32,000 nt of DNA from contig CP113000.1 in assembly GCA_026625185.1 (NCBI GenBank), forward strand, positions 1,275,622-1,307,621. The letters are read 5' to 3'. How positions within the stretch are numbered: position 1 is the stretch's first letter; each line of letters begins with the position of its first letter. The notes under the pieces were generated by a model. It was not told the DNA's origin. It searched no databases and saw only the letters and a program-made list of their open reading frames with translations. Source of the stretch: Thermodesulfobacteriota bacterium. GTDB taxonomy: Bacteria; Desulfobacterota; WTBG01; JAGOGO01. A program made the translations under genes and the position numbers. Shown piece after piece: positions 1 to 27,183 of the stretch.

Positions 1-471
1 CTTGATTTCAATTGGTATCCCGTCGTTGACCAGAGACCAGATTTCTTCAATTTCCCGGTTGGTTACTGCGATACACCCCTGAGTCCAGTTCATCTTCCGA
101 TAAAAAAAACCGAGAAAGCCCAGCCCGTTTCTAATGCCGTGGAGCATGATGTCCCCGCCGGGGTTCACTCCCGCCTGGTTTGCCCGCTGAATATCTGCCT
201 GGGAGGGGTAGGAAATGTGAAGTGAGCGATGATAGCAACTTTGATAATTGCGCCCGTCGATAACGTAAAGACCTTCCGGTGTTTTCCCGTCGTCTTTCTG
301 TAACTTATGCCCCTCAGGGTATGGACCAAGCGCAACCTGATAGGTACGTATAATATTACCTTCTGAAAGCAGAAAAAGCTTCCGCTTGGCTTTTTCAACT
401 ACAACAAGGTCAATCTGCCTGGCGGGTGGTGATTGCTTCCTTGAATTTAAAACCCTTTTCTTAGCCAGCAT
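1..471 (-). CDS. L,D-transpeptidase (YkuD/ErfK-type catalytic domain); C-terminus runs off the window
   Basis: This gene is absent from the ORF track because no stop codon lies in the window. The minus-strand frame from ATG 471 is open to base 1 (157 codons): MLAKKRVLNSRKQSPPARQIDLVVVEKAKRKLFLLSEGNIIRTYQVALGPYPEGHKLQKDDGKTPEGLYVIDGRN...GDIMLHGIRNG...WTQGCIAVTNREIEEIW. The HG ... xGC(I)xxxN arrangement is the YkuD His/Cys catalytic signature. I see no clear signal peptide or SD. Confidence 0.75.
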   Translation of the reverse strand, partial: MLAKKRVLNSRKQSPPARQIDLVVVEKAKRKLFLLSEGNIIRTYQVALGPYPEGHKLQKDDGKTPEGLYVIDGRNYQSCYHRSLHISYPSQADIQRANQAGVNPGGDIMLHGIRNGLGFLGFFYRKMNWTQGCIAVTNREIEEIWSLVNDGIPIEIK

Positions 472-10824: not shown

Positions 10825-12789
10825 ATGAGGTACTCAGAGACAGGGTTTAATTTAGAAATTGACCTATCCCGGGGAAACATTGAGAGGGTTGAAACCGACC
10901 CACGATTAACCGAGCTTTATCTGGGGGGTCTCGGTACTAACGCCAAGATATTATGGGATAGGGTTCCCCCAGAAACTGATCCCTTTTCGCCTGACGCTCC
11001 CCTGATTTTCAGTTCAGGCCTTTTAGGCGGCACAATTGCTCCCGGCGCTAATCGCACCATTATTACTGCTTACTCCCCTCAGACTCTTCTAATGGGATTT
11101 TCAATGATGGGGGGATTTTTTGCGCCGGAAATGAAGTATGCCGGATATGACAAAATCATTTTTCGCGGCAAGTCCCCCGATCTGGTCTATTTGTGGATAA
11201 ATAATGACAAAGTAGAAATACGTGATGCCGCTCATCTCCGTGGTAAAGGCGCTGTTGAAACTCAAGACATTATACGGAAGGAGTTGAATCAGCCGAGCGC
11301 CCATGTGGCTGCTATCGGTCTGGCCGGTGAAAACCGGGTCTATACGGCTTCCATCGAGCAGGGCAGGTCCAGCGCCAGCCGGCTCGGATTAGGAGCTGTG
11401 ATGGGAGACAAAGGGATAAAGGCGATAGCTGTTCGTGGGACAAATGACATCAATATTGCTCGGCCGGATGAATTTATAAAGCTTTGCAACGAAGTGCTGG
11501 AATATATAAAATTCCGAAACGCGAATCCGGTTCCGAACATAATGACCATTTTACAGGGGCTTGGTTCACCTCAAGAGATGGTGGAGACTGATGAGAAATG
11601 GCACACCGAGAATTTCAGTTGGGGAAATTCCCGCATTCGTAGAAAAGACTTCTGGACCAAGGAAATTGAAGAGAGATGGAAGAGTGTTCAATTAGATGTG
11701 CGGAAGCGGTTAATTAGCTGCTACAACTGTCCGATGAAATGCGGGGCAATAATTGCCGTCCCGGGACTTTCGATCTATATGATGAAATGCTTCACAAAAC
11801 TAACCTATACAATGGGAGCTTTAGTAGACGACCTGGATTTTGGTTTTAGAATCTCTCAACGCGCTGCGGAATATGGAGTGGACGGATTTTCAACCCCGCA
11901 AATTATGGCCTTCGGCTTCGAGCTTAAAGAAGCCGGCATTTTGACTGACGCGGATTTTGAAGGATGCCCTTCCGATAACGAGGGAAGATTTTACTGGCTC
12001 CTTGACAGAATTGTCCGGCGGGAAGGGATAGGAGATATCCTGGCTGATGGCACGCATTGGGCGGCCAAAAAGATCGGTAAGGGAGCAGAAGCGTACGTTC
12101 ACAACAATATCAAGAAGCATGAGCAGCTGCCTCTTAAGCTTGGAATGCTGAACCCCGTCTATTACCTGATGTATGCCACCGGCGAGAAAGCAAACATAAC
12201 GCAGATTGAAGGGCAGTTCCCCCAGGCGCCTTTCATGACCATGGAGGAAAGAGAAGCATTTGTAAAGGATTGGTTCCAGGTTCCTGATGAAAAGTTTAAA
12301 CAATATGTTCTGGACTGGGAACCGCGGGGAGAGCACTCAAATCCATTGTACCCGACTGTTGACATGTCCGTTGACATTGTTGACTGGCAAGAAAAAATGC
12401 ATTACATTGATGACGCCCTCGGGGTGTGCGCCGGTTTGTCATCATTTCCTCTGAAGCCTCCTTATCATATGCACAATTACCCCCATTTTATCTCATCAGC
12501 GAGCGGGATTGATATGGATGAAACCGGACTAACGGAAGTATATAATAGGAACCGCAATCTGGTTAGAGCCATTAATGTGAGAAGAGGCATGAGGAGAGCC
12601 GATGAGGATCCGCCCGAAGACCATTGGAAGAAAAGATTCCCAGAGCTTGAAAAAAAGCTCCTGGATGCTTATTACAAATTTAAGGGGTGGGATGATGATG
12701 GTATCCCTACGAAAGAGACATTACAGAAATTGGATCTGGGCTACGTTGCCGAAGACTTAGAACAGAGAGGTATTATAAAAAATGGCTAA
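10825..12789 (+). CDS. bamB: Class II benzoyl-CoA reductase active-site subunit BamB (tungsten bis-pyranopterin enzyme, aldehyde:ferredoxin oxidoreductase family)
   Basis: The 654-aa ORF has an AOR-family N-terminus (MRYSETGFNLEIDLSRGNIERVETDP..LYLGGLGTNAKILWD) and the [4Fe-4S] motif LISCYNCPMKCG. Long stretches such as NNIKKHEQLPLKLGMLNPVYYLMY and GLSSFPLKPPYHMHNYP match what I recall of Geobacter BamB. It is followed by the full bamC-I set. Confidence 0.88.
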   Translation: MRYSETGFNLEIDLSRGNIERVETDPRLTELYLGGLGTNAKILWDRVPPETDPFSPDAPLIFSSGLLGGTIAPGANRTIITAYSPQTLLMGFSMMGGFFAPEMKYAGYDKIIFRGKSPDLVYLWINNDKVEIRDAAHLRGKGAVETQDIIRKELNQPSAHVAAIGLAGENRVYTASIEQGRSSASRLGLGAVMGDKGIKAIAVRGTNDINIARPDEFIKLCNEVLEYIKFRNANPVPNIMTILQGLGSPQEMVETDEKWHTENFSWGNSRIRRKDFWTKEIEERWKSVQLDVRKRLISCYNCPMKCGAIIAVPGLSIYMMKCFTKLTYTMGALVDDLDFGFRISQRAAEYGVDGFSTPQIMAFGFELKEAGILTDADFEGCPSDNEGRFYWLLDRIVRREGIGDILADGTHWAAKKIGKGAEAYVHNNIKKHEQLPLKLGMLNPVYYLMYATGEKANITQIEGQFPQAPFMTMEEREAFVKDWFQVPDEKFKQYVLDWEPRGEHSNPLYPTVDMSVDIVDWQEKMHYIDDALGVCAGLSSFPLKPPYHMHNYPHFISSASGIDMDETGLTEVYNRNRNLVRAINVRRGMRRADEDPPEDHWKKRFPELEKKLLDAYYKFKGWDDDGIPTKETLQKLDLGYVAEDLEQRGIIKNG

Positions 12790-13327
12790 GGTTAAGAAGA
12801 AAATCAAGTCAATCAAGATCGATCTTGATAAATGCAATGGTTGCCGGGCATGTGAGGTGATTTGCTCAGCTTTTCATGCGAGCCCGAAATACAGCGGCGC
12901 CAATCCAGGGAGGGCCCGTATTCGGATGATTCGCGACCCGTTAAGAGACGTATATGTTCCTGTATATGCGGGTGAGTATACCCCTGCCGAATGCATGGGC
13001 AGAGACAAATATGTAATTGACGGAAAAGAATACGATGAGTGTGGCTTTTGCAGAGCTTCCTGCCCATCCAGAGACGCCTTCAAAGACCCCGATTCAGGTC
13101 TTCCTCTAAAATGCGATATGTGTGAAGATGATCCGCCGCAAGAAAAGCCCTTGTGTGTTCAGTGGTGTTTAAATGATGCCCTGATTTACGAAGAAAGGGA
13201 AGAGGAAGTAGAAGAAGAAGAAAGTCCTGAGGCCTTGGAGGTTGGGGTTAAAGCATTGACAGACAAATTTGGATTGGACCAGATAATGGATGCCGTTGCC
13301 CGAATGTCAATGTCAAAGAAAGGCTAA
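12782..13327 (+). CDS. bamC: BamC, poly-[4Fe-4S] ferredoxin-like electron-transfer subunit
   Basis: The 181-aa ORF overlaps the bamB stop by 8 nt (ATGGCTAA), implying translational coupling. Cys clusters include CNGCRACEVIC, CGFCRASCP and CDMCEDD..CVQWC, and the tail is acidic. Confidence 0.8.
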   Translation: MAKVKKKIKSIKIDLDKCNGCRACEVICSAFHASPKYSGANPGRARIRMIRDPLRDVYVPVYAGEYTPAECMGRDKYVIDGKEYDECGFCRASCPSRDAFKDPDSGLPLKCDMCEDDPPQEKPLCVQWCLNDALIYEEREEEVEEEESPEALEVGVKALTDKFGLDQIMDAVARMSMSKKG

Positions 13328-13339
13328 TAATCCGTAAGT

Positions 13340-13384
13340 CGTAAAAAGTGAAATGCTTCACCGTCTTACATTTTACGGTTTTTA
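13340..13384 (+). terminator. Terminator-like bulged hairpin + T-run between bamC and bamD (possible partial attenuator)
   Basis: The outer stem pairs CGTAAAA (13340-13346) with TTTTACG (13371-13377). The inner hairpin is GTGAA-ATGC-TTCAC (13348-13361), and GTTTTTA follows. The stem is AU-rich, so at best this is a leaky terminator. Confidence 0.3.
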
Positions 13385-13420
13385 CACCATTAAGGCGAAA
13401 TAAGAGGCTTAAGAAAAACA

Positions 13421-14572
13421 GTGGAGATGGTAGCACCCTTACAAGAAGTAATAGATCTAACAAAAAATGCCGGTGGGGAATCCTTCAAATTCTGCTATCA
13501 ATGCGGATTATGCGATGTTGTTTGTCCGTGGAATAGGGTTAGAACCTTTAGTATGCGCAAGTTAGTCCGGCAGGCTGCGTTTGGTTTGACCGAGATAGAA
13601 CATGAAGAGATATGGCGTTGTACCACTTGCGGAAGATGCCCTCAGCAATGCCCCCGTGGAGTAGAACAGATAAAACTTGGGGTATCCTCGCGCAGAATTG
13701 CCTCGGAATACGGAGTTTTTCCTGCTTCGGTCACTCCGGTGCGCGGGGTAAGCGCAAGTCTTGTTGCCGAAGGCAACCCCTTGGGTGAAGAGCGCCAAAA
13801 GCGGGCAAATTGGGCGGAAGGTCTGTCAGTAAAACCGTTTACCGCGGGGATGGAAATTTTGTATTTTCCCGGCTGCTACTTAAGCTATGACCCGAGATTA
13901 AAAAAGGTATCCCGAGCCACTGCCACCATCCTTAAAAAGGCAGGGGTAGATTTTGGGATATTGGGTGCCAAGGAGAACTGTTGTGGAGAAAGCATCCGCA
14001 AGACTGGCAATGAGGAAGTATTCAAACAATTAGCCAGGGAAAACATCAAAACTTTTATTGATAATGGGGTGAAGAAAATTTTGGTTTCTTCTCCTCATTG
14101 CTACCACACTTTCAAAAACGAGTACCCCGAATTCATGGTGAACTTCGAGGTGGTTCATATCGCCCAATACTTATTCGATCTTATTAACGAGGGAAGGCTT
14201 GCGATCACCAAGGAGTATGGGAAGAAAATTACCTATCATGATCCCTGTTACCTGGGCCGACATAACGGCATATTTGACCAACCCCGAGAGGTCTTAAAGA
14301 AGATACCCGGCATAGAACTGAATGAGATGCCGGATTCGCGAAAAAATAGTCTCTGTTGCGGCGGCGGCGGAGGCCGGATTTGGATGGAAACTCCAAAGGG
14401 TGAGCGATTCTCCGACCTCAGAGTAGTGCAAGCTGTTGGCGTCGGAGCTGACGTTTTGGTTACTTCCTGCCCTTACTGCATTTCAATGTTTGAAGACAGC
14501 AAGTTAACTCTGAAGGATAGTGATGCCTTAGAGATTAATGACATCACGGAAATTATCCAGGAAGTGATTTAG
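13421..14572 (+). CDS. bamD: BamD, HdrD-like subunit (2x[4Fe-4S] ferredoxin domain + two CCG domains)
   Basis: The 383-aa ORF contains CYQCGLCDVVCP and CTTCGRCPQQCP motifs. Two CCG-domain motifs follow (GAKENCCGES...SSPHCYH and SLCCGGGGGRIW...TSCPYCISM). The start could be GTG 13421 or ATG 13427. Confidence 0.85.
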   Translation: MEMVAPLQEVIDLTKNAGGESFKFCYQCGLCDVVCPWNRVRTFSMRKLVRQAAFGLTEIEHEEIWRCTTCGRCPQQCPRGVEQIKLGVSSRRIASEYGVFPASVTPVRGVSASLVAEGNPLGEERQKRANWAEGLSVKPFTAGMEILYFPGCYLSYDPRLKKVSRATATILKKAGVDFGILGAKENCCGESIRKTGNEEVFKQLARENIKTFIDNGVKKILVSSPHCYHTFKNEYPEFMVNFEVVHIAQYLFDLINEGRLAITKEYGKKITYHDPCYLGRHNGIFDQPREVLKKIPGIELNEMPDSRKNSLCCGGGGGRIWMETPKGERFSDLRVVQAVGVGADVLVTSCPYCISMFEDSKLTLKDSDALEINDITEIIQEVI

Positions 14573-14590
14573 AGGACAAAGAAGTTAAAC

Positions 14591-15388
14591 ATGCAAGAAG
14601 CGATTGACGTATCAGCCCTGAAAGGTGTAGTAGCGGGCATGACCTGTGATCGGTTTTCAGACGAGGGATGGGTGAGGACCTCAGTTTACGCGCCTAGTGA
14701 GATGCAACTGAAAATTTATATAAATCAGCAGGAACTGGTCTCCATCCTGTGCACTCCAACCAAGCTGAATTGCCTTGCCTTCGGGTTCCTGTACACCGAG
14801 GGAATCATCTCCGGCATCGGCGACGTGGCGGGCATGCGGGTGTGTGAGGATGACTCGCTGGTCGATGTGAGGCTGAGCAAAACCGAGTTTAAATTGCCGA
14901 CCCTGCGGACACTTACCTCTGGGTGCGGTGGCGGTGCAATTTTCAAAACTGAGGGACAAAGGGTTGATTCTGGTCTTACTGTTACACCAACGGAAGTGCT
15001 GGCGCTGATGAAAAAGCTTCAAGGGCAGATGCAACTCTTTCGGCTTAGCGGCGGCGTGCACACTTCAGCTCTGTCCGATACCAGGAACCTGTTGGTGGTG
15101 GCTGAGGATATCGGACGGCATAACACCTTTGACAAGATTCAGGGCGAATGTCTATTGAGGAAACTATCAACCAAAGATCGACTGGTACTAACCACCGGTC
15201 GCGTTTCGTCCGAGATGTTGCTCAAGGCGGCAAAGATGAAGGTACCGGTTGTTGCAACCCGGCACTCGCCGACGGAGCGAGCTATTTCGCTTGCTCTTGA
15301 TCTGGGTATTGCTTTGGTTGGCTATGCCCATGGAAACAGTCTGTCGGTCTATTCCCACCCGGAACGACTTGGGTGGTCGACAAATTAG
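14591..15388 (+). CDS. fdhD: FdhD-family sulfurtransferase/cofactor-insertion protein, embedded in the bam operon
   Basis: The 265-aa ORF carries the FdhD hallmarks GGVHTSAL, EDIGRHNTFDKIQG and VVATRHSPTERAI. Its Cys loop reads LTSGCGGGAIF, with a single Cys where E. coli-type FdhD has SSCGVCG. Confidence 0.8.
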   Translation: MQEAIDVSALKGVVAGMTCDRFSDEGWVRTSVYAPSEMQLKIYINQQELVSILCTPTKLNCLAFGFLYTEGIISGIGDVAGMRVCEDDSLVDVRLSKTEFKLPTLRTLTSGCGGGAIFKTEGQRVDSGLTVTPTEVLALMKKLQGQMQLFRLSGGVHTSALSDTRNLLVVAEDIGRHNTFDKIQGECLLRKLSTKDRLVLTTGRVSSEMLLKAAKMKVPVVATRHSPTERAISLALDLGIALVGYAHGNSLSVYSHPERLGWSTN

Positions 15389-15454
15389 GTGTATGGCTAA
15401 CCCGACGGACGGCGGATATCACAGAAACAAAAAAACCGGATAAGGTGATAGAAA

Positions 15455-18400
15455 GTGGAAAATGTAATAATGCTCAAAGAAAATATTCAAGAACTTGGTA
15501 AAACTCTTGGAGCCAATAGTGTTGGCGATGTCATGATTATAGGTGGAGGGATCAGCGGTATTCAAGCGTCTCTTGATCTTGCCAATGCGGGTTTTAAGGT
15601 TTACCTGGTTGAGAAAGCGCCGTCCATTGGGGGCCATATGGCCCAGCTTGACAAGACCTTTCCAACCAATGACTGCTCAATGTGAATACTTGCACCCAAA
15701 CTGGTCGAGGTCGGCCGGCATCCCAATGTAGAAGTCCTCACCTATACTGAAGTTGAGAGTGTAGCAGGGGAAGTAGGAAACTTTAAGGTAACCCTGGTTA
15801 AAAAGCCCAGGTATATTCTAGAGGACAAATGCACGGGCTGTACTACCTGTGTAGAGTACTGCCCGGTCAAATACCCTGATCAATATAATCAGGAAATATC
15901 GAAGAATAAGGCAGTCCATGTATATTTCGCTCAGGCGATTCCACTTATCACTTATATAGATGAAAGCTGTCTTTATCTTAAAGAGGGCAAATGTCGTATT
16001 TGCGAAGCAGTATGTAAGAATAAGGCGATAGATTTCAATCAAACGCCGGAAAAGGAAGAAGTAAGTGTAGGGGCGATCATTCTGGCTCCCGGCCTTGAGC
16101 CGTTTGATCCTAAGGTAAGGGAGGAATATCGGTACGGAGAGTTTCAGAACGTGGTAACCAGTATGGACTATGAGCGACTGTTATGCTCCACCGGACCATA
16201 CCAAGGTGAGATACTCCGTGCTTCCGACCTGAAGCATCCCCATAAAATAGCTTGGATTCAATGCGTCGGTTCCAGACAGGTTATCGAGGGCGGTAACAGC
16301 TATTGTTCAGCCGTATGCTGCACGTATACCCAGAAACAGGCGATTTTGACAAAGGATCATGATGCCGGGGCAGAGTGTGTAATATTTCATAATGATATTC
16401 GTTCCTATGGGAAGGATTTTGAGCGATTCTACGAAAGGACCGAGAAACTTCCCGGGGTTCGATTTATCAGGAGCTACACATCAATTGTTAAGGAGAACCC
16501 GGAAACCAAGAATGTCACCATACGGTATTCTACACCCGATGATGGAGTAAAAGAGGAAGAATTCGATATGGTGGTACTGTCCGTCGGATTGAATCCTCCT
16601 GCGGATGTATTGGACCTGGCAAAAAAATTCGGCATTAAACTAAATCCTCACGATTTTTGCAACCTCAATCCTGTCAATCCTATGGAGACCAACAGGCCTG
16701 GGATCTTTGTAAGCGGAGGTTTCCAGGGACCTATAGATATTCCCGAGTCGGTTTTCAGCGCCAGCGGGGCCAGCTCCCAAATTGGTGAGCTTCTTGACTA
16801 CCGGCGAGGAATTCTTTCCAAAGAAAGGATCTATCCGCCGGAAAGGGATGTCTCCAAAGAGGATCCAAGGATAGGGGTCTTTGTGTGTCATTGTGGGGCT
16901 AATATCGGAAGGATAGTCAATGTTCCTGAAACAGTTGAATATTGCAAATCCTTACCCAATGTTGTCTACGCCCAGGAGCAGCTGTTTTCCTGCGCTACTA
17001 ATTCCGCCAAAGAAATAACGGACATGATCAAAGAAAAAGGGCTCAATCGAGTGATTGTCGCCGCCTGCTCGCCCAGGACCCTTGAGCCGCTATTCCGGGA
17101 TACTGTTCGGGAGGCAGGAATCAATCAATACTACTTTGAAATGGCAAACATTAGGGAGCATAACTCCTGGGTCCACTCGAAAGAAAAGGAAGAAGCCTCC
17201 GAAAAGGCACATGATATAATCCGGATGTCGGTAGCGCGAGCCTGCCATTTGGAGCCATTACAGGAATTTGATCTACCGGTCAACAAGGCGGCGTTAGTGG
17301 TTGGAGGAGGGATAGCCGGCATGACTAGTGCTCTCTCCATAGCCAACCAGGGGCATGAGGTTCACCTGCTGGAAAAGGATACAGAGCTTGGGGGAATAGC
17401 ACGGAGAATTCATGATACGCTGGAAGGACTGGATGTTCAGGCGTATTTGCGCGATCTGATAAGAAAGGTATATCAACACCCTTTAATACATGTATATCAT
17501 GATACCACCATCACCGGGGCGACAGGTTATGTGGGAAATTTCGTAACCAAGGTGAAGTCTGACAGAGGAGTCACAGAGATAAAACATGGCGCATCCGTCA
17601 TCGCAATAGGGGTTGATGTATATAAACCTGCCGAATACCTTTATGGAGAAGACGACCGGGTCTTGACCCATCTCGAGTTGGAGGAACAGATCACCAAAGG
17701 AAACGAAAAGGTGATTAACGCAGAAAGTCTCGTGATGATACAATGCGTGGGCTGCAGAAATGAGGAGAGAAATTATTGCAGCAGGCTGTGCTGCAGCGAG
17801 TCGGTCAAAAACGCTTTGAAACTGAAAAAAATAAACCCCAAAATGAATATTTACATCCTCTTTCGGGATATAAGAACATATGGATTCAAAGAGGATTATT
17901 ACCGGGAAGCTGCGGATAAAGATGTAAAGTTCATTCGCTATGAACCGGAAGATCCACCGGAGGTGAAAGCTGTTAAAGATGGCGGTAAGAGCATTCTAAA
18001 GGTTTCCTTGCCGGATTATATTTTAGGGCAGAAGCTTGAAATAGATGCGGATATCATTTCCCTGGCCGCCGCTGTTGTTCCTTCTTCAGCCACCAAGGAG
18101 GTCGCCGGATTATTCAAGGTGACTTTGAGCCCGGATGGCTTCTTCAAAGAAGCCCATGTTAAATTAAGACCGGTTGAGTTTGCTACCGACGGCGTTTACC
18201 TTTGTGGATTGGCCCACTATCCTAAGTTTATGCAGGAAACGATTAACCAGGCTTATGGAGCTGCTGGCCGGGCCTTAACGCTTTTGTCACACGATATCGT
18301 CATCGCCTCCGGCTCGGTTTGCGGGGTGGATGAGAATAGGTGTGTTTCATGCGGGGCATGTATCACCGTTTGCACCTATGGCGCCATAGAGTTTTATGAT

Positions 18401-18583
18401 ACCCCCCAGGGCAGAAAGGCCAGGGTTAACCCGGTTCTCTGCAAAGGAGATGGTCTTTGTAACACGGTGTGTCCGACAGCGGCTATTTCACTAAAGCACT
18501 TTACCGATGAAGAGATCTTGAGCCAAATTGATGCGGCGGTTCCGGAGGAAGAGATCATACAAAAAATTGAGGCTGCCGCCTGA
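15455..18583 (+). CDS. bamE: BamE, HdrA-like flavo-iron-sulfur selenoprotein; in-frame TGA 15683-15685 read as selenocysteine
   Basis: The start GTG 15455 is preceded by AAGGTGA-N6. The frame is open from 15455 to 18583 apart from one TGA. I translated 15686-16150 by hand and found no stop ([23 protein letters not shown]...[12 protein letters not shown]...[15 protein letters not shown]...[12 protein letters not shown]). The track ORFs 15455-15685 and 16151-18583 are in the same frame. The TGA lies in [14 protein letters not shown], a position I recall as Cys or Sec in HdrA. There are two FAD GxGxxG modules ([17 protein letters not shown] and [17 protein letters not shown]). The product is 1042 aa. 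Confidence 0.85.
15701..15718 (+). other. Candidate bacterial SECIS hairpin for the bamE UGA
   Basis: The hairpin begins 15 nt after the UGA. It reads CUGGUC-GAGGUC-GGCCGG, a 6-bp stem with two G.U pairs. The apical loop contains GGUC, the loop sequence I recall from the E. coli fdhF SECIS. Confidence 0.45.
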
Positions 18584-18653
18584 TGCCGATGGTGAAGGAT
18601 GTATAGAATTTTATGAATAAAGCCGGGATTACTAACTAAGGAGGTAAGAAAGA

Positions 18654-19421
18654 ATGATTTCAGGACTCAAATTTAAGCCAAGATTAATAGGTTTCGTATG
18701 CCACTGGTGAGCATACGGGGCTGCTGACCTGGCTGGAGTTTCCAGACTGCAATATACCACTGAAATGAGGCTTATTCGCGTCATGTGCACCGGCAGAGTC
18801 GACTTGGAACATGTACTCCGGGCTTTCTCGAAGGGAGTGGATGGGGTATTTATTGGCGCCTGCCATCTAAATGAATGTAACTATATTACTCATGGCAACT
18901 ACCATGCATTAACCATGGTGAATATATGTAAAAAAATAATGGAAAACATTGGCCTGAATCCTGAAAGATTAAGGATCCGATTCATGTCCGGCGCTGAAGC
19001 AAGCCTTTTTGTAGAATCTGTTAATGAGTTTGTCAAGACGGTGAAGGAAATAGGCCCCCTTGGCAAAGTCGAAGGAATAAACAAGAATGCATTAAAGGCC
19101 AAGCTTGAGGCCGTGACACAGCTAGTCCCCTACATCAGGTTGGTGGAAAGGGAGAGGCTGCGATTACCTTTTAAATCGGAAGAAGAATATAATAATTTTT
19201 TCACCAGTGACGAATTCAACAAGTTATTTAATGAGTTAATTGTAGAAAAATTGGCAATAAGCCAAATAACCTCACTCTTGCGGGAAAGACCCCTTTCGGC
19301 TGGTAAAATCTCTGAATATTTAGGCCTAGCCCCGTCTGAGGTTTCAAGATACATGAATACTTCATCAAGGCAGGGATTAGTCAGGTATGATGAAGGCCGC
19401 AATTGCTTCGCTCTTGCCTAA
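18654..19421 (+). CDS. bamF: BamF, MvhD-like [2Fe-2S] selenoprotein with C-terminal winged-helix-like extension; TGA 18708-18710 read as selenocysteine
   Basis: The start ATG 18654 has a strong SD (AAGGAGG at 18638-18644). It is in frame with the track ORF that starts at 18765. The N-terminus reads MISGLKFKPRLIGFVCHW-U-AYGAADLAGVSRLQYTTEMRLIRVMCTGRVD. This aligns with the MvhD motif FCCNWCSYAGADLAG, with Sec at the last Cys. The product is 255 aa. Confidence 0.82.
18728..18745 (+). other. Candidate bacterial SECIS hairpin for the bamF UGA
   Basis: The hairpin lies 18-35 nt after the UGA. One fold is CUGGA-GUU-UCCAG (18733-18745). An alternative fold pairs CUGG (18729-18732) with CCAG (18742-18745) and leaves a 9-nt loop containing GG and GU. 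Confidence 0.4.
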
Positions 19422-19451
19422 CCCCGATACACGGGATAAATACGTTAACGA

Positions 19452-19486
19452 AATTATTTTCTGCCGGAAAAACGCAGAAAATAATT
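19452..19486 (+). other. Perfect 13-bp inverted repeat between bamF and bamG (RNA hairpin or palindromic protein-binding site)
   Basis: AATTATTTTCTGC (19452-19464), loop CGGAAAAAC, then GCAGAAAATAATT (19474-19486). No T-run follows, so it is not a classic terminator. Confidence 0.6.
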
Positions 19487-19528
19487 CCTGACATACTAAG
19501 GTGAAAGAGGCAGATTAGGAAAGCGACT

Positions 19529-19981
19529 ATGAATAAAGGTAGAGTCGATCAAATTATAGAAAAGCATCATGGCGAAGCCAGTTCGCTCATTCAAGTACTA
19601 CTGGAGATTCAGAGTGAGCATCATTGGCTTCCCAAGGAAGCATTAGATAGGATCAGCGAAAAATTACAAGTTCCTTTAACCAGGATACTTTATATAGCCA
19701 CCTTCTATAAAGCCTTTAGTTTAGTTCCTAAAGGACGTCATGAAGTTCACGTTTGTGTTGGTACTGCCTGTCATGTTCGCGGCGCGCCGCGTATCCTTGA
19801 CACGGTGCAAGACCTGACTGGAATTAAACCCGGCGAAACGGACGCAGATTTGAAGTTTAGCCTGGAGACTGTTAATTGCCTCGGCTGCTGTGCTTTAGGA
19901 CCGGTGTTGGAAGTCAATGGAAAGACTTACGGTAACATGGGGCCATCCAAGACCGCAGAGGTGTTAAAAAACTACGAATAA
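19529..19981 (+). CDS. bamG: BamG, NuoE/HoxE-like [2Fe-2S] subunit
   Basis: The 150-aa ORF has thioredoxin-like [2Fe-2S] motifs CVGTACHVRG and CLGCCALGP. Confidence 0.85.
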   Translation: MNKGRVDQIIEKHHGEASSLIQVLLEIQSEHHWLPKEALDRISEKLQVPLTRILYIATFYKAFSLVPKGRHEVHVCVGTACHVRGAPRILDTVQDLTGIKPGETDADLKFSLETVNCLGCCALGPVLEVNGKTYGNMGPSKTAEVLKNYE

Positions 19982-19990
19982 GGAAAAATT

Positions 19991-21919
19991 ATGTTAAGGA
20001 TAAACTCCCCTGAGGAGTTAGAAAAACTCAGACAAGAAATTTTATCCCGGAGTGACCCAAGCAAACCTTGCATTTCAATATGCGCTGGCGCCGGTTGTCT
20101 TGCTTCCGGTGCAGGTGAAGTTATAGCCGCCTTTAAAGCAGAGATTGAAAAGCAAGGCTTAACGACGGATGTGAATACCAAAGGAACCGGGTGCCCTGGA
20201 TTTTGTGAAAGAGGACCCGTTGTGATTATTTATCCTGAGGAGATATGTTATCTCCGGGTAAAGCCTGATGACGTTCCCGAGATTATCTCACAGACTATAA
20301 GGGAAAAAAGGGTTGTCGACCGTCTATTATATGTTGACCCAACCACCGGCGAAAAAGCAATTCATGAATCCGACATCCCCTTTTATAAGAATCAAAAACG
20401 AAATCTTATCAGCTATAATAGTAAGATTGATTCCAAGAGCATTGATGACTATTTGGCGATCGGTGGTTATTCCGCATTAGCTAAAGTCCTTTTCAAGATG
20501 ACCGCCGAGCAAGTATTGGAAGAAGTCAAAAAATCCAACCTGAGAGGAAGGGGGGGTGGCGGCTTTCCCGCAGGGAATAAGTGGGAGGGATCCCGCAATG
20601 CTCCTGAACCAATCAAATATGTGCTCGTCAATGCCGATGAGGGTGACCCTGGGGCATTTATGGATAGAGCTCTCCTTGAAGGAAACCCTCATTCAATCCT
20701 TGAGGGATTGACTATTGGAGCTTACGCTATCGGCTCCCACGAGGGTTATATTTACGTGAGGCAGGAATATCCCTTAGCGGTAGTAAATGTGAACATCGCC
20801 ATCAGGCAGGCCGAGGAATATGGTTTGCTTGGGAAGAACATACTCGGGTCTGGTTTTGATTTCACTGTTAAAGTTCACCAGGGAGCCGGCGCTTTTGTCT
20901 GTGGTGAATCAACGGCTTTGATGACGGCATTGGAAGGCAGGGCAGGAGAGCCCAGACCGAAGTATATCCGCTCCAACATCGTGGGCCTTTGGGGTCGGCC
21001 CACCGTTTTGAATAATGTTGAGACCTGGGCAAATGTGCCGCTTATCATCAATAAGGGCGCAGATTGGTTTACTCAATTTGGAACTGAAAAGAGCAAGGGC
21101 ACGAAGATCTTTTCCCTGGTTGGGAAGATAACCAATACCGGGCTTGTGGAAGTGCCCATGGGCATCACCCTGAGAGATATTATTTACAAGATAGGCGGTG
21201 GAATCCCAGGAGGCAAGAAGTTCAAAGCCGTGCAGACCGGGGGACCGTCCGGAGGATGTATCCCTGAGAAACTGTTAGATTTGGAAGTTGGTTTTGATGA
21301 ACTCACCAAGGCCGGTTCAATGATGGGTTCAGGTGGGATGATCGTAATGGATGAAGATACCTGTATGGTTGACGTCGCCAGGTACTTTCTTAACTTCCTC
21401 ATCGATGAATCGTGCGGCAAATGCACCCCATGCCGTGAAGGCATCAGGCAGATGCTTAAGATTCTCACTAATATCACTAAAGGAAAGGGAAAAGAGGGCG
21501 ACATCGAGCTTTTGGAGGAATTAGCCGAAGTAGCCATCGATGCCTCACTATGTGCTTTAGGGAAGAGTGCCCCTAACCCGCTTCTCAGCACGGTGCGATA
21601 CTTCAGAGATGAGTATGAGGCACACGTCAAGGAGAAAAGGTGCCCGGCTTTATCCTGCAAGGAGCTGATCGCGTACCATATTGACCCGAGTAAGTGCCAG
21701 GCATGTATGATTTGCCTTAAGAAGTGCCCTGCCGACGCTATTGAAGGCGGCAAGAACCGGATCCATGTAATTGACCAGGGAAAATGCACAAAGTGCGGAA
21801 CTTGCATTGAAGTTTGCCCCGCTCGCTTTGGTGCTGTAAATAAGATTTCAGGCCAGCCTGTTCCGGCTCCTATCCCTGAAGATGCAAGAACTTTAGTCAG
21901 AAAGAGTAAAGAACAATGA
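19991..21919 (+). CDS. bamH: BamH, NuoF/HoxF-like FMN- and NAD(P)H-binding iron-sulfur subunit
   Basis: The 642-aa ORF has an N-terminal thioredoxin-like [2Fe-2S] domain (CAGAGCLASG...CPGFCERGP). It also carries the FMN/NADH motifs GRGGGGFPAGNKW and ADEGDPGAF, the [4Fe-4S] motif ESCGKCTPCREG, and a C-terminal 2x[4Fe-4S] ferredoxin (CQACMICLKKCP and CTKCGTCIEVCP). Confidence 0.88.
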   Translation: MLRINSPEELEKLRQEILSRSDPSKPCISICAGAGCLASGAGEVIAAFKAEIEKQGLTTDVNTKGTGCPGFCERGPVVIIYPEEICYLRVKPDDVPEIISQTIREKRVVDRLLYVDPTTGEKAIHESDIPFYKNQKRNLISYNSKIDSKSIDDYLAIGGYSALAKVLFKMTAEQVLEEVKKSNLRGRGGGGFPAGNKWEGSRNAPEPIKYVLVNADEGDPGAFMDRALLEGNPHSILEGLTIGAYAIGSHEGYIYVRQEYPLAVVNVNIAIRQAEEYGLLGKNILGSGFDFTVKVHQGAGAFVCGESTALMTALEGRAGEPRPKYIRSNIVGLWGRPTVLNNVETWANVPLIINKGADWFTQFGTEKSKGTKIFSLVGKITNTGLVEVPMGITLRDIIYKIGGGIPGGKKFKAVQTGGPSGGCIPEKLLDLEVGFDELTKAGSMMGSGGMIVMDEDTCMVDVARYFLNFLIDESCGKCTPCREGIRQMLKILTNITKGKGKEGDIELLEELAEVAIDASLCALGKSAPNPLLSTVRYFRDEYEAHVKEKRCPALSCKELIAYHIDPSKCQACMICLKKCPADAIEGGKNRIHVIDQGKCTKCGTCIEVCPARFGAVNKISGQPVPAPIPEDARTLVRKSKEQ

Positions 21920-22542
21920 GTGAAATCATTTTACAGATAGATGGAAAAGAAGTCAAAGCAAAGGAAGGGATGACCGTTTTGGAGGCAGCCCAAAGCGCGG
22001 GGATATCCATACCCACACTCTGTCACCATGAAAAATTGGAACCCTATGGGGGTTGCCGACTTTGTATCGTAGAAGTAGAAGTTCGCGGCTGGACACAGCT
22101 CGTTGTTTCCTGTGTTTACCTGGCGGCAAAAAATTTGATTGTAAGAACTAGATCTGAGAAGGTAGATAGAATTCGCAAAATGATCTTAGAACTATTGCTG
22201 GCTCATGCCCCGGATGCTTTCGAATTGCAGGATTTGGCTAAAGAGTATGGAGCAGACAAAGACCGTTTTGAAAAAGAGTCCTCATTTTGCATTCATTGTG
22301 GTCTATGTGTAAGATATTGTGCTGAGGTCAAGAAGAAGAATGCGGTTGGATTTGTTGACAGAGGAACAAGGAAAGAGATCAGTTTCATTCCAGGGATAGC
22401 ATCTAAGGAATGCTGGAACTGCAAGGAATGTTTTCCGCTTTGCCCTACAGAGGCCTTACAAGCAGCTTTCGTTTTAACCAAAGCGCTCATTTCCTCCCCA
22501 CCCTCCTCCGAACTTGTGTCAGTGGGAATAGGCAAAGATTAA
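21916..22542 (+). CDS. bamI: BamI, NuoG N-terminal-like [2Fe-2S]/[4Fe-4S] subunit
   Basis: The 208-aa ORF has a start that overlaps the bamH stop (ATGA). It begins with a plant-type [2Fe-2S] region (IPTLCHHEKLEPYGGCRLCIVEV), followed by CIHCGLCVRYC and CWNCKECFPLCP. Confidence 0.8.
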   Translation: MSEIILQIDGKEVKAKEGMTVLEAAQSAGISIPTLCHHEKLEPYGGCRLCIVEVEVRGWTQLVVSCVYLAAKNLIVRTRSEKVDRIRKMILELLLAHAPDAFELQDLAKEYGADKDRFEKESSFCIHCGLCVRYCAEVKKKNAVGFVDRGTRKEISFIPGIASKECWNCKECFPLCPTEALQAAFVLTKALISSPPSSELVSVGIGKD

Positions 22543-22733: not shown

Positions 22734-23507
22734 ATGCAGAAGGTAACGTGTGAAAAAATGTTTGATAATCAGGTATGGAAGATTATTCTTAATGATCCCA
22801 AGGGGAATGTGGTTGATTCCATTATGTTAAAGGGATTTCAGGAGGTGCTTGATGAGGTTTCAAAAGAAAAGCATTGCAAATTAATTATTTTTCAGGGCGC
22901 CGGAAGTCATTTTTCCTTTGGAGTGAGTGTGGAGGAACATACCGAAAAACTGGCCGCAGGAATGCTGGCAAGCTTTCACGACTTATTTATTAGGTTAACT
23001 GATTTAGGGATACCGGTTTGCTCTCTGATCTCCGGACAGTGTCTTGGTGGGGGAGTAGAGATCGCCACTTTCGCTCATTTTGTTTTCGCTGATGAGACTG
23101 CCCGGATTGGTCAGTCAGAAGTCGCTCTTGCAGTTTTTGCTCCCCCGGCATCAGTGATATTGCCCCTTAAAGTCGGCCATATGCATGCAGAAGATATTCT
23201 CCTTACCGGTAGAAGCCTTACTGCACAGGAAGCCAAGCAAATGGGACTTTTAAACGAGGTTTATCCTGATAAGAGTACGATGGAACAAAAGGTGAACGAA
23301 TGGATTCAGCAGCAGATTCTTCCTAAGAGTGCTTTCGCCTTAAAGGTGGCCACAAAACAAGTCCGCAAACGCTTCAATGAACGATTAAAGGAAGATTTAC
23401 GGTTTTACGAATCAGTTTATATGAATGAGCTCATGAAGTCTCATGATGGTAAGGAAGGTTTGAACGCGTTTTTAGAGAAAAGGAAACCGGTTTGGACCGA
23501 TGATTAA
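22734..23507 (+). CDS. Crotonase-family enzyme, most likely cyclohexa-1,5-diene-1-carbonyl-CoA hydratase (Dch/BamR-like)
   Basis: The 257-aa ORF has a strong SD (AGGAGGG-N6-ATG). Its motifs GAGSHFSFGVSVEEH, GQCLGGGVEIA, LAVFAPPAS and MNELMKSHDGKEGLNAFLEKRKPVW match my recollection of Thauera Dch (GPHFSFGASVDEH, GQCLGGGLE, LGVFAPAAS, ...EGLKAFLEKR). It lies directly downstream of the bam genes. Confidence 0.65.
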   Translation: MQKVTCEKMFDNQVWKIILNDPKGNVVDSIMLKGFQEVLDEVSKEKHCKLIIFQGAGSHFSFGVSVEEHTEKLAAGMLASFHDLFIRLTDLGIPVCSLISGQCLGGGVEIATFAHFVFADETARIGQSEVALAVFAPPASVILPLKVGHMHAEDILLTGRSLTAQEAKQMGLLNEVYPDKSTMEQKVNEWIQQQILPKSAFALKVATKQVRKRFNERLKEDLRFYESVYMNELMKSHDGKEGLNAFLEKRKPVWTDD

Positions 23508-23906: not shown

Positions 23907-25058
23907 TTATTTTAGGTTTCCCAGAATTTCTCGGCCAATAATGATTTTCTCTACCTCCTTTGTCCCTTCATAAATTTCCAAGACTTTGGCAGCCCGGTAA
24001 AATCGTTCAATGTCCTGATCATTGAAATACCCATAACCCCCATGGAGCTGCAGCGACTCATCCACCATTTCTACCGCAACATGACAGGCATAAAGTTTGG
24101 CCATCGCGGTCAGTTTCGTGTCGGGCCGGCCCTGGTCAAGTAACCACGCTGCCTTGTAAACCATGTTGCGGGCAGTCTCAACCTTGGTTGCCATCTCAGC
24201 TATTTTAAACTGAGTAACCTGAAAGGCTCCCAGGGGCTGGCCAAACTGTTTCCGCTCTTTGACGTGTTTGATTGCCATGTCCAGCGCCCCTTGAGCAAGT
24301 CCCACGGCATGTCCAGCCACATAGGCCCGGGATCGGTCAAAAAAATTCATCAGTTGAATAAATCCGTTTCCTTCCTTACCAATGAGATTTTCTTGGGGAA
24401 CCCGGACATCGGTGAAATAGATGCTGGCGGTGTCCGAACACCTTATCCCCATTTTCCCTTCCATCCGGTCGGCTTCGTAGCCTTTGCGATTAGTTTCCAG
24501 CAGAATAATGCTGTGGCGGCCGGTCTTGGATTTCTCTTCCGGATTGGTAAGGCAATAGACGAGCATATGGGTTCCTTTGGTGCCATTGCTGATCATGACT
24601 TTGCTGCCGTTAATAACATAGTCATTGCCGTCTTTTACCGCCGTGGTTGAAGCAGCAGCGGTGTCACTTCCGGCATCGGGTTCGGTGATGGCAAAACCAA
24701 AGATCGTGTTACCCTCAAAAATGGGGGGCAAAAATTTCTTTTTCTGTTCCTCGGTTCCGTAAAGAAGCAGCTCTTCGACGCCAAAACTAATGGTGCAAAG
24801 CTGCTGGCCAATGCCGGGGTCTACCCTCCAAAACTCCTCTAAAACCATCGCCTGTTCCAGATACCCGAACCCAGGCCCGCCGTATTCTTCAGGAATAAAA
24901 AGACCGACCAGACCGAGTTCCTTTGCTTTCTTGATTATCTCTTCGGGAAAGGTCTCGTTTAAATCATACTCACGGGCAACATCGGTAAACTCCCCAACCG
25001 CAAAATCCCGTGCTGCTTTTTTGATGTCTCTTTGTTCATTAGTTAAATCAAAATTCAT
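23907..25058 (-). CDS. Acyl-CoA dehydrogenase (short/medium-chain ACAD type; substrate not assignable)
   Basis: The 383-aa ORF has an SD (AAGGAGG-N7-ATG). ACAD motifs include FAITEPDAGSD, GSKVMISNG and QLHGGYGY, with the catalytic Glu in EIYEGTKEV. Confidence 0.88.
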   Translation of the reverse strand: MNFDLTNEQRDIKKAARDFAVGEFTDVAREYDLNETFPEEIIKKAKELGLVGLFIPEEYGGPGFGYLEQAMVLEEFWRVDPGIGQQLCTISFGVEELLLYGTEEQKKKFLPPIFEGNTIFGFAITEPDAGSDTAAASTTAVKDGNDYVINGSKVMISNGTKGTHMLVYCLTNPEEKSKTGRHSIILLETNRKGYEADRMEGKMGIRCSDTASIYFTDVRVPQENLIGKEGNGFIQLMNFFDRSRAYVAGHAVGLAQGALDMAIKHVKERKQFGQPLGAFQVTQFKIAEMATKVETARNMVYKAAWLLDQGRPDTKLTAMAKLYACHVAVEMVDESLQLHGGYGYFNDQDIERFYRAAKVLEIYEGTKEVEKIIIGREILGNLK

Positions 25059-25200: not shown

Positions 25201-27183
25201 CTAAAGCAAATCCACCAGTACTTCCGCCAGATCCTTCACTTCGATCTTATTTTCATATCCGGCGGTCTTGACTGCGTCCTCCAGCATGCTCAGGCAGAAA
25301 GGACAAGCCGTTATAAGGAGCTCGGCCCCGACTTCAGCCGCATCCCGAGCACGAAGCTCGGATATTTTTTCCCTGGCTTCGAATTCTTCCATCCAGACCC
25401 GGCCACCGCCTCCACCGCAGCAAAAGCTGTTGCGCCGGTTTCTTTTCATCTCCACAAATGTAACTCCCGGGATCGCCCGGATAACCATCCGCGGTGCATC
25501 ATAAATCCCACAGTGCCTTCCCAGGTAGCAGGGATCGTGATAGGTCACCCGCTTTTCTAACTTTTTGGAAATTGTCAGCTTCTTTTCCTGGATCAGCCTT
25601 GCTAGGAGTTCAGTATAGTGTTGAACTTTTATTTCCGACTCAGTTTGAATCTCAAGTTTTTTGCGATAAAGCGGGTATTCATCCCGCAACATCTTTAACC
25701 CATGGGGACAGGTGGTCACGATCTCTTTAACGCCGCACTCTTCGAGTGTTTCGTAATTTTTCATGATCAACTCTTCTAAAAGCCCTTCCTCGCCGATCCT
25801 TTTTGGCATATCTCCACAGCAGGATTCTTTGTTTCCGAGAATGCCAAAGTCCAATCCTGCCTTACTAAATACTCCTGCTGCGCATCTGGCAATCTCCTGC
25901 AAACGATTATCGTATGCAGACGCGCAGCCTACGAAGTAAAGGAGCGCTGCTTTTGCTCCTTTGGAAAGGTCTTTTATCCCCAGGTCTTTTGCCCACTCCG
26001 TTCGTTTGTTCTTGGGTCCCTGATAAGGATTTCCGTACTTAAATATCGCCTCTAACATGGTCCCTACCATCGAGGGAACCTGGGTGCCTTCTTCTACCTT
26101 TGACCTCCGGATCTCGCGAATGATATCCAGACTGTTGATAGTTATTGGGCATTCTTCCACACACGCCCGACAGGTAGTACACATCCAGGCTTCTTCTCCC
26201 TGAAGGACTACGGTTTTTGAAACCTCAGTTACTGGTTTTTTTAACCATACGTTTACTAATCGGGAAACACGGTACTTCGTCTTTGCATAAACTTTCATCT
26301 TTTGATTTATTGCCCGAGGTGAGAGCGTCTCTCCGCTGACATTTGAAGGACATTTCGTCTCGCACCGATTACAACGGGTACAGGCATCAAAGGCAACAAG
26401 GCGGCGACGGCTAAATTCCTGGGTCAGTTTTTCTCTTTCTTCCAGAGTCATCACTTCTGAAGGAAGCGTTTCGAGAATTACATTAAGAGGGCTAGTGATT
26501 ACGTGAAATAATTTGGAAAAAGGCAGGTAGCCGAAAAGGAAGAAACTCAAAACCGAATGGATCCACCAGATGGTAACATGGCATTGGAGCGCATCTCCCC
26601 GGAGGAACCCGGCAAGGTATGCACCCACCGGCTCCCAGGATAACCATGGTTCTGGTTTGGCTTTCAGACGATATCCTTCGATAAGAAAGCCCGTGATACC
26701 AATTGTGAGAAGTAAAAACAGCACCAGGGGATCTTCAAGAAGATTATTCATTTTCCCGGCCTTGAGGAGATACCGCCGGATCAGGGCCATTATCAAACCA
26801 ACAATAAACAACAGCCCAACGATATCGAGGGTCAAAGAATAATACAAATAAATTGGCCCGCTTAGAAAATTAAAAATATAATCATTAAAGGCTGATAATA
26901 CCGTCCCCAGGAATAAAATAAAAAAACCCCACATGATGAACATGTGCATGAGCCCTCCAAAGAGGTCTCGGGAAAAGATCTTGGCGTTTCCCAGAATTTG
27001 TTTTAGGGTTGCTGAAAAAACCCGCGAAAGATCTAACGTGTTTTTGCCGGGCCAGCCTTGCAACCAAACCCAGATATTCCGGTAACAACCACCAAGAAAA
27101 ATCACGACCGAAAAAGCAGCCAGAAGATAAAAAATCACGTGGTAGCTAATATTCCAAAATATCTCTCGCTCAGCCATGATCAT
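25201..27183 (-). CDS. Membrane-anchored HdrD/BamD-like Fe-S oxidoreductase (N-terminal ~5-TM His-containing domain + 2x[4Fe-4S] + two CCG domains; architecture of ETF:menaquinone oxidoreductase-type enzymes)
   Basis: The 660-aa ORF has about 5 predicted TM helices in the first 230 aa, with conserved-looking His residues (MHMFIMW, WWIHSV, LFHVI). Ferredoxin motifs [12 protein letters not shown] and [12 protein letters not shown] follow, then CCG motifs (NKESCCGD...TTCPHG and [12 protein letters not shown]...TACPFCLSM). The soluble part is visibly paralogous to bamD in this window. The start is ATG 27183 or ATG 27177. Confidence 0.75.
   Translation of the reverse strand: [660 protein letters not shown]

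Follow-up and report, generated by a model that had tools for sequence, protein, structure and literature searches.

A conserved in-frame UGA, very probably read as selenocysteine, places the start of bamF upstream of its listed start

Introduction

Does bamF, the gene for an MvhD-like subunit in a predicted benzoyl-CoA reductase cluster, begin where a mechanical ORF list begins it, or does it begin further upstream, on the far side of an in-frame UGA codon? The only bamF entry in that list is an ORF at 18765..19421 encoding 218 aa (all positions are those of the window, the whole 32,000-nt stretch of DNA analysed here). An earlier note on this DNA, made from its letters, held that the list had missed the true start at ATG 18654 and that the intervening TGA at 18708-18710 is a second selenocysteine (Sec) codon, after the one in bamE.

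The question can be set against a known enzyme. A 2026 cryo-EM preprint describes the structure of BamBCDEFGHI, the class II benzoyl-CoA reductase of Geobacter metallireducens, in which BamF is an adaptor of the MvhD type that exceeds MvhD itself by more than 100 residues; its winged helix (wHTH) contacts BamI, and its [2Fe-2S] cluster (F1) passes single electrons toward the bifurcating FAD of BamE. Sec19 of this BamF was modelled as Sec in the cryo-EM map and is a non-ligand residue beside [2Fe-2S], which bears out the earlier note's statement that BamF has been reported as a selenoprotein. The BamE of the same complex has a Cys59-Cys62 disulfide, and the study left a gap of ~28 Å unexplained. 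Among the CxxU selenoprotein families tabulated in a 2026 review are MvhD/VhuD (PF02662) and HdrA.

Here, we find that bamF very probably runs from ATG 18654 to the stop codon at 19419-19421 and encodes a 255-residue selenoprotein in which UGA 18708-18710 would specify Sec (U19).

Results

The bamF reading frame begins upstream of the listed start

ATG 18654 lies in the same frame as 18765, 37 codons upstream of it, and is preceded by a Shine-Dalgarno sequence, AAGGAGG (18638..18644, + strand), with a 9-nt spacer, as read directly from the sequence; the in-frame ATG and the ribosome-binding site that the earlier note had described are thus both in place. Translation from this ATG gives MISGLKFKPRLIGFVCHW, then the TGA at 18708-18710, then AYGAADLAGVSRLQY... 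/ AYGAADLAGVSRLQYTTEM..., and ends at the stop codon 19419-19421. By translation, homologues and Pfam, the full coding sequence spans 18654..19421 on the + strand, stop codon included, and its 255 residues have Sec at position 19. Homologues start with M-S-x-x-x-K-F-K-P at the same point, while the residue preceding the Met is variable, and one homologue (L164) has GGAAGGAGG at an equal distance from the start.

The listed start at 18765..18767 (+ strand) is an ATG and yields the 218-aa product; a second mis-called start, 18783, gives the 212-aa database protein P0001. The same kind of truncation is widespread, as about 100 of the 120 nearest database proteins (P0001-P0120) are 194-236 aa long (194, 209, 212, 218, 230 or 236 aa). 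Gene callers restart downstream of the UGA, in some records at the Leu codon of D-L-A-G.

These records lend themselves to a different account, in which translation does begin downstream (at 18765 or 18783), the preceding 111 nt represent either a leader that is not translated or a degenerate remnant, and the UGA merely ends a short upstream ORF. Most public records do use downstream starts, and an ATG is present at 18765; however, across ~160 loci the 37 upstream codons are kept as in-frame protein, and residues 1-37 hold two of the five invariant Cys/Sec positions. In a structural model of a homologue (described below), these residues form strand β1 and helix α1, and strand β2 begins with residue 38, so that a start at 18765 drops both elements along with the CxxU motif. 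Against the NCBIfam profile VhuD, the read-through product scores 140 bits over profile positions 2-127 of 132 and the 18765 product 93 bits over positions 31-127, a loss of 30 profile positions and 47 bits. Finally, direct reading revealed no evident SD-like sequence ahead of 18765, whereas 18654 has AAGGAGG. We regard a genuine downstream start as extremely unlikely.

The preferred reading is that the gene starts at 18654, not at 18765, because UGA 18708-18710 is a Sec codon; the starts at 18765 and 18783 are gene-caller artefacts caused by the UGA. The claim of the earlier note about the true start therefore holds: coverage of the whole domain needs the TGA to be read through, the TGA is conserved, homologues have Cys in its place, and synonymous sites downstream of it are frozen.

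The UGA is conserved and alternates with cysteine codons

A genome scan with one genome per species returned 80 related loci at 57-80% identity. In-frame TGA stands at the corresponding column in 79/79 genome loci with a readable N-terminus, and the flanking peptide, FVCHW-U-AYGAADLAGVSRLQY, is strongly conserved on both sides of it. The TGA-bearing metagenome-assembled genomes (MAGs) are labelled Syntrophorhabdales, Syntrophales, Desulfomonilaceae, Desulfotomaculum/Firmicutes and Deferrisomatales, among others. When genome and metagenome loci are taken together, the column reads TGA in 152 of the 162, TGT in 7 and TGC in 3; Cys is invariant there in 18 full-length Cys-type proteins, and the PDB MvhD chains also have Cys. 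An alignment at this column, which the earlier note had named as a check on its proposal, thus yields 152 TGA and 10 TGT/TGC, with the conserved Cys present in Cys-type homologues. On this comparative evidence, and on that of Sec19 in Geobacter BamF, the codon at 18708..18710 (+ strand) would be read as U19 of the motif C16-H-W-U19 (CxxU).

Exchange between the two residues may be seen at close range. Locus L164 has TGT at its positions 1055-1057, while the near-identical loci L084 (1555-1557) and L085 (1341-1343) have TGA, with downstream sequence otherwise the same; the SECIS hairpin of L164 is still intact despite the TGT. This TGT either arose very recently from a Sec codon or is a sequence variant, and the comparison indicates that Cys and Sec are interchangeable at the bamF site. 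The database protein P0011, at first sight an ordinary Cys-type homologue, is not taken as one, since its DNA has TGT within a Sec-type context and thus points to a very recent change or a sequence variant.

That near-identical contigs can differ by a single base at this site (L164) would also be compatible with the TGA of the present contig being a sequencing or assembly error, or the lesion of a pseudogene. Three independent assemblies (L001-L003) nevertheless carry an identical TGA and locus, 152 loci have TGA overall, and apart from it the reading frame is unbroken and evolves under purifying selection; we consider an error or lesion next to impossible.

Elsewhere in the window TGA serves as a normal stop codon, terminating 4/24 long ORFs, including bamE 70 nt upstream of bamF, and the genetic code is standard. 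An in-frame TGA read-through scan of the window for other recoded UGAs yielded only bamE and bamF; a TGA upstream of a 660-aa ORF (25201-27183) was rejected, since it sits in non-coding-looking sequence. Within the 32-kb window, ARAGORN found no tRNA, and Pfam scans of the large ORFs together with ARAGORN found no selA, selB, selD or tRNA-Sec gene.

A small hairpin downstream of the UGA is frozen at the nucleotide level

Downstream of the UGA lies a candidate SECIS core, GCUGGAGUUUCCAGA (18732..18746, + strand), delimited by conservation, codon entropy and RNAalifold. It comprises CUGGA (18733-18737), the loop GUU (18738-18740) and UCCAG (18741-18745), has a core free energy of -5.3 kcal/mol, and falls 23-35 nt past the last base of the UGA, within codons for the conserved peptide L-A-G-V-S-R. 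Bacterial SECIS elements are said to carry a G-U in the apical loop at 16-37 nt after the UGA.

In a single sequence the hairpin is no more than chance, and it becomes significant only via related loci. A fold of the 63 nt after the UGA is no better than that of shuffles (z=+1.0); on the window's + strand, perfect hairpins with a 5-bp stem and a 3-nt loop number 36 against an expected ~31, and 16 of the 607 TGA triplets of that strand have such a hairpin within +9..+45. Some GG/CC complementarity is also inherent in the Gly-Val-Ser codons themselves, and a fold at this place is likewise seen in one Cys-type sequence.

Among relatives, 70 of the 71 distinct sequences taken from genomes share the 15-nt block unaltered. 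The hairpin codons (+8..+12) have a codon entropy of 0-0.34 bit across 134 distinct Sec-type sequences, compared with 1.1-2.1 bit for other 4/6-fold degenerate codons within 25 codons either side; the fixed choices are GCT for Ala (131/131 Sec-type sequences), GGA for Gly (129/134), GTT for Val (127/134), TCC for Ser (134/134) and AGA for Arg (132/134). Ten Cys-type sequences encode the same A-G-V-S-R via GCC, GGG, GTC, TCT, CGT and CGG. The rare Sec-type variants (GGC+GTG, GTC, AGG, and TCT at the Ala/Ser position) all retain the CUGG/CCAG stem and the loop GU. The hairpin that the earlier note had pointed out is therefore present, with a synonymous freeze that is specific to Sec-type genes. 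Such a freeze is the pattern expected of a SelB-binding element inside a coding sequence, which this hairpin may be.

RNAalifold on 62 sequences returned the bamF hairpin as the only well-supported helix and showed no compensatory changes in it, because the hairpin hardly varies; its support is conservation, not covariation. Two further candidates were dropped: long-range pairs predicted by RNAalifold (columns 2-4/66-68 and 12-14/56-58), which were unsupported, and a lower SECIS helix suggested by correlated CTG/TTA (+21..23) and CTG/AGT (+39..41) variants, which show no antiparallel pairing and are probably lineage-linked amino-acid and codon changes. Searched against Rfam at E<=10, the stretch 15000-20000 gave no match to SECIS or to any other family of relevance.

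The hairpin also bears on whether selenium is involved at all, for the UGA might be read through by near-cognate insertion of Trp or Cys, or be reassigned, and Cys is indeed functionally acceptable at residue 19. Reassignment is ruled out by the use of TGA as a normal terminator (4/24 long ORFs, bamE among them). As for leaky read-through, the nucleotide constraint sits exactly on the GU-loop hairpin, 23-35 nt past the UGA, and is absent in Cys-type genes; a constraint specific to the hairpin is predicted by SECIS/SelB recoding and not by leaky read-through, and thus argues against a selenium-free reading. Moreover, the orthologous Geobacter residue was modelled as Sec. Decoding without selenium is, in our judgement, very unlikely. 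The earlier note's proposal of a second Sec codon at TGA 18708-18710 is upheld by the conserved in-frame TGA, the TGT/TGC alternatives, the full domain and the frozen hairpin codons.

Domains and fold of the BamF product

In a Pfam search with the TGA read as Cys, residues 12-134 (18687..19055, + strand) matched the MvhD/FlpD [2Fe-2S] domain over nearly the whole profile (PF02662, E=2.5e-46, profile 2-123/123). The 140 bits of the read-through product lie below the 215-bit equivalog cut-off of the VhuD model, and the product ranks by this score as a family member, not as a VhuD equivalog. PDB MvhD chains (5ODC_D, 7BKB_F, 8RVU_F and others) align from residue 6-10 with E=1e-30 to 1e-39.

The structural model is an AlphaFold (AF2) model of the homologue P0011, which is 75% identical and Cys-type (pLDDT 81.6). 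In it, strand β1 takes up residues 11-16 and helix α1 residues 17-26, with strand β2 following at 38-43; its top structural hit is MvhD 5odc_D (TM 0.88), and it also matches 8rvu_F (0.93). The BamF-specific extension ends in a C-terminal winged-helix (ArsR/IclR-like) module at residues ~204-244 (19263..19385, + strand; PF01022, PF09339), where the HTH_5/HTH_IclR matches cover residues 204-247 and the P0011 model has helices followed by a β-hairpin.

Five positions of the domain are invariant, namely C16, U19 (Cys in the 18 full-length Cys-type proteins), C45, C70 and C75. Judged by this invariance, the [2Fe-2S] ligands are presumably C16, C45, C70 and C75. The earlier note had taken it as established that cysteines of the N-terminal motif help to bind the cluster, and had proposed that Sec replaces a cluster-proximal Cys. 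The first statement is only partly borne out: every BamF-type protein has V/I/L in place of the first cysteine of the 'CC' pair known from methanogens, and residue 19 is, in the Geobacter description, a neighbour of the cluster and not one of its ligands. The second agrees with that position beside the cluster and with the Cys of homologues.

Cys-type homologues nearly always have a second, vicinal Cys (W-C-C), and Sec-type proteins have W-U-A or W-U-G; in our alignment (A2), W-C-C with Cys at residue 20 occurs in L111, L114, L119, L122, L126, L127, L141 and L150-L152. The vicinal Cys20 of Cys-type BamF may compensate for the lost selenol.

The operon and its other selenocysteine codon

From its gene content, the set to which bamF belongs is a predicted class II, tungsten-dependent, ATP-independent benzoyl-CoA reductase. 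The cluster bamB-bamC-bamD-fdhD-like-bamE-bamF-bamG-bamH-bamI (10825..22542, + strand) was assigned by Pfam architectures, and its gene order is also found in L001-L003. All on the + strand, the products are BamB, of the aldehyde:ferredoxin-oxidoreductase type (10825-12789); BamC, a small 4Fe-4S protein (12782-13327); BamD, an HdrD-like CCG protein (13421-14572); an extra, FdhD-like protein of the FdhD/NarQ family (14591-15388; PF02634, E=1.6e-66); BamE, HdrA-like and of ~1040 residues (15470-18583); the MvhD-like BamF (18654-19421); BamG, NuoE-like (19529-19981); BamH, NuoF-like (19991-21919); and BamI, a 2Fe-2S/4Fe-4S protein (21916-22542). The FdhD-like gene sits between bamD and bamE, an arrangement shared by L001-L002, and its product may act in sulfur transfer or maturation for the tungsten cofactor of BamB.

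The bamE gene has its own Sec codon, TGA 15683-15685 in the motif C69-S-M-U72, with a hairpin, CUGGUCG-AGGU-CGGCCGG, at 15701-15718. Every locus that extends far enough upstream has this TGA (71/71), the bamE synonymous sites are frozen at codons +6..+11 in the same pattern as in bamF, and the two UGAs co-occur in 71/71 loci. Two loci (L037 and L041), both on the chromosome OY762209.1 (Syntrophorhabdaceae), show that two bamE-bamF pairs, each with both TGA codons, can reside in one genome.

Downstream of the cluster, the window contains an enoyl-CoA hydratase (22734-23507), an acyl-CoA dehydrogenase (23907-25058, - strand) and, adjoining the latter, a 660-aa protein that combines a NarI-like transmembrane domain with 4Fe-4S and CCG domains (25201-27183, - strand). 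This last, a membrane Fe-S oxidoreductase, could carry electrons of ETF-type output into the quinone pool.

Discussion

The mechanism that we propose for this locus follows the bacterial SelB/tRNA-Sec pathway, by which UGA 18708-18710 would be decoded as Sec (U19), with SelB presumably recruited by the small SECIS hairpin CUGGA-GUU-UCCAG. In the protein, the N-terminal α/β domain would hold the [2Fe-2S] cluster, and U19, by analogy with the Geobacter structure, would adjoin it as a redox-active selenol with no ligand role. The C-terminal extension, ending in the winged helix, may dock on BamI as in the Geobacter complex. By homology to the Geobacter enzyme, BamF would relay single electrons from the confurcating module BamGHI to the bifurcating FAD of BamE. 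The BamF selenol may also join a selenenylsulfide-type switch from one-electron to two-electron chemistry. In this clade, the two thiol sites between the BamF cluster and the bifurcating FAD would both be selenols, U19 of BamF and U72 of BamE. Since both UGAs occur in 71/71 loci, these might go so far as to form a dedicated two-selenium relay, with selenenylsulfide or even Se-Se exchange during a conformational swing of BamF, and such a relay would close the ~28 Å gap; we think this improbable and put it forward as speculation.

The main value of the result is a correct annotation, as about 100 of the 120 nearest proteins are on record without strand β1, helix α1 and the CxxU motif, and the 255-residue form is needed for modelling, expression or metagenome surveys of class II benzoyl-CoA reductases. 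The sequences further indicate a need for selenium in BamE as well as BamF across many anaerobic degraders of aromatics, and this need bears on trace-element limitation of aromatic degradation in anoxic sediments. Growth of Desulfococcus multivorans on benzoate is reportedly selenium-dependent. The earlier note went further and called the operon strictly dependent on selenium, which is a reasonable inference, though a Cys-type isoenzyme elsewhere in the genome is conceivable.

The gene described here is the orthologue of a known selenoprotein, with a known Sec at a known position in a known operon. As Sec19 of BamF and the MvhD selenoprotein family have already been described, what we offer is an annotation fix and no new principle. 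Like Geobacter metallireducens BamF, the product has an MvhD-like [2Fe-2S] domain and an extension of more than 100 aa that ends in a winged helix, its gene lies between bamE and bamG, and its Sec is residue 19 (by codon count and the numbering of the preprint). Unlike the Geobacter complex, the present BamE would also have Sec in a CxxU motif, where Geobacter BamE has Cys59-Cys62 (if, as appears, the two sites are equivalent), and an fdhD-like gene stands between bamD and bamE, which sets the cluster apart from the Geobacter description. The host here is a bacterium not in culture, and the genomes nearest to it, at 79-80% identity, are Syntrophobacterales/Syntrophorhabdales MAGs.

With methanogen MvhD/VhuD (5ODC chain D, 7BKB chain F, 8RVU chain F), the bamF product shares its fold, its conserved Cys pattern and, by its predicted role, an adaptor function that feeds electrons to an HdrA-type bifurcating flavin. 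Methanogen MvhD is ~130-140 aa long and has no C-terminal wHTH extension, whereas the bamF product has 255 aa; the methanogen motif is C-C-N-W-C and the BamF-type motif V/I/L-C-H/N-W-U/C; and MvhD partners with a hydrogenase or formate dehydrogenase, BamF with BamGHI. Archaeal Sec forms rely on a 3'-UTR SECIS, in contrast to the in-frame, bacterial-type hairpin of bamF. With bacterial SECIS elements (E. coli fdhF type; bSECISearch consensus) this hairpin shares its form as a stem-loop within the coding sequence, 3' of the UGA, and the G-U of its apical loop, a few tens of nt past the UGA. It differs from them in being very small (5 bp, or 4 bp with a 5-nt loop), in having no evident lower helix or bulged U, and in placing its loop GU ~8 nt further from the UGA than that of fdhF.
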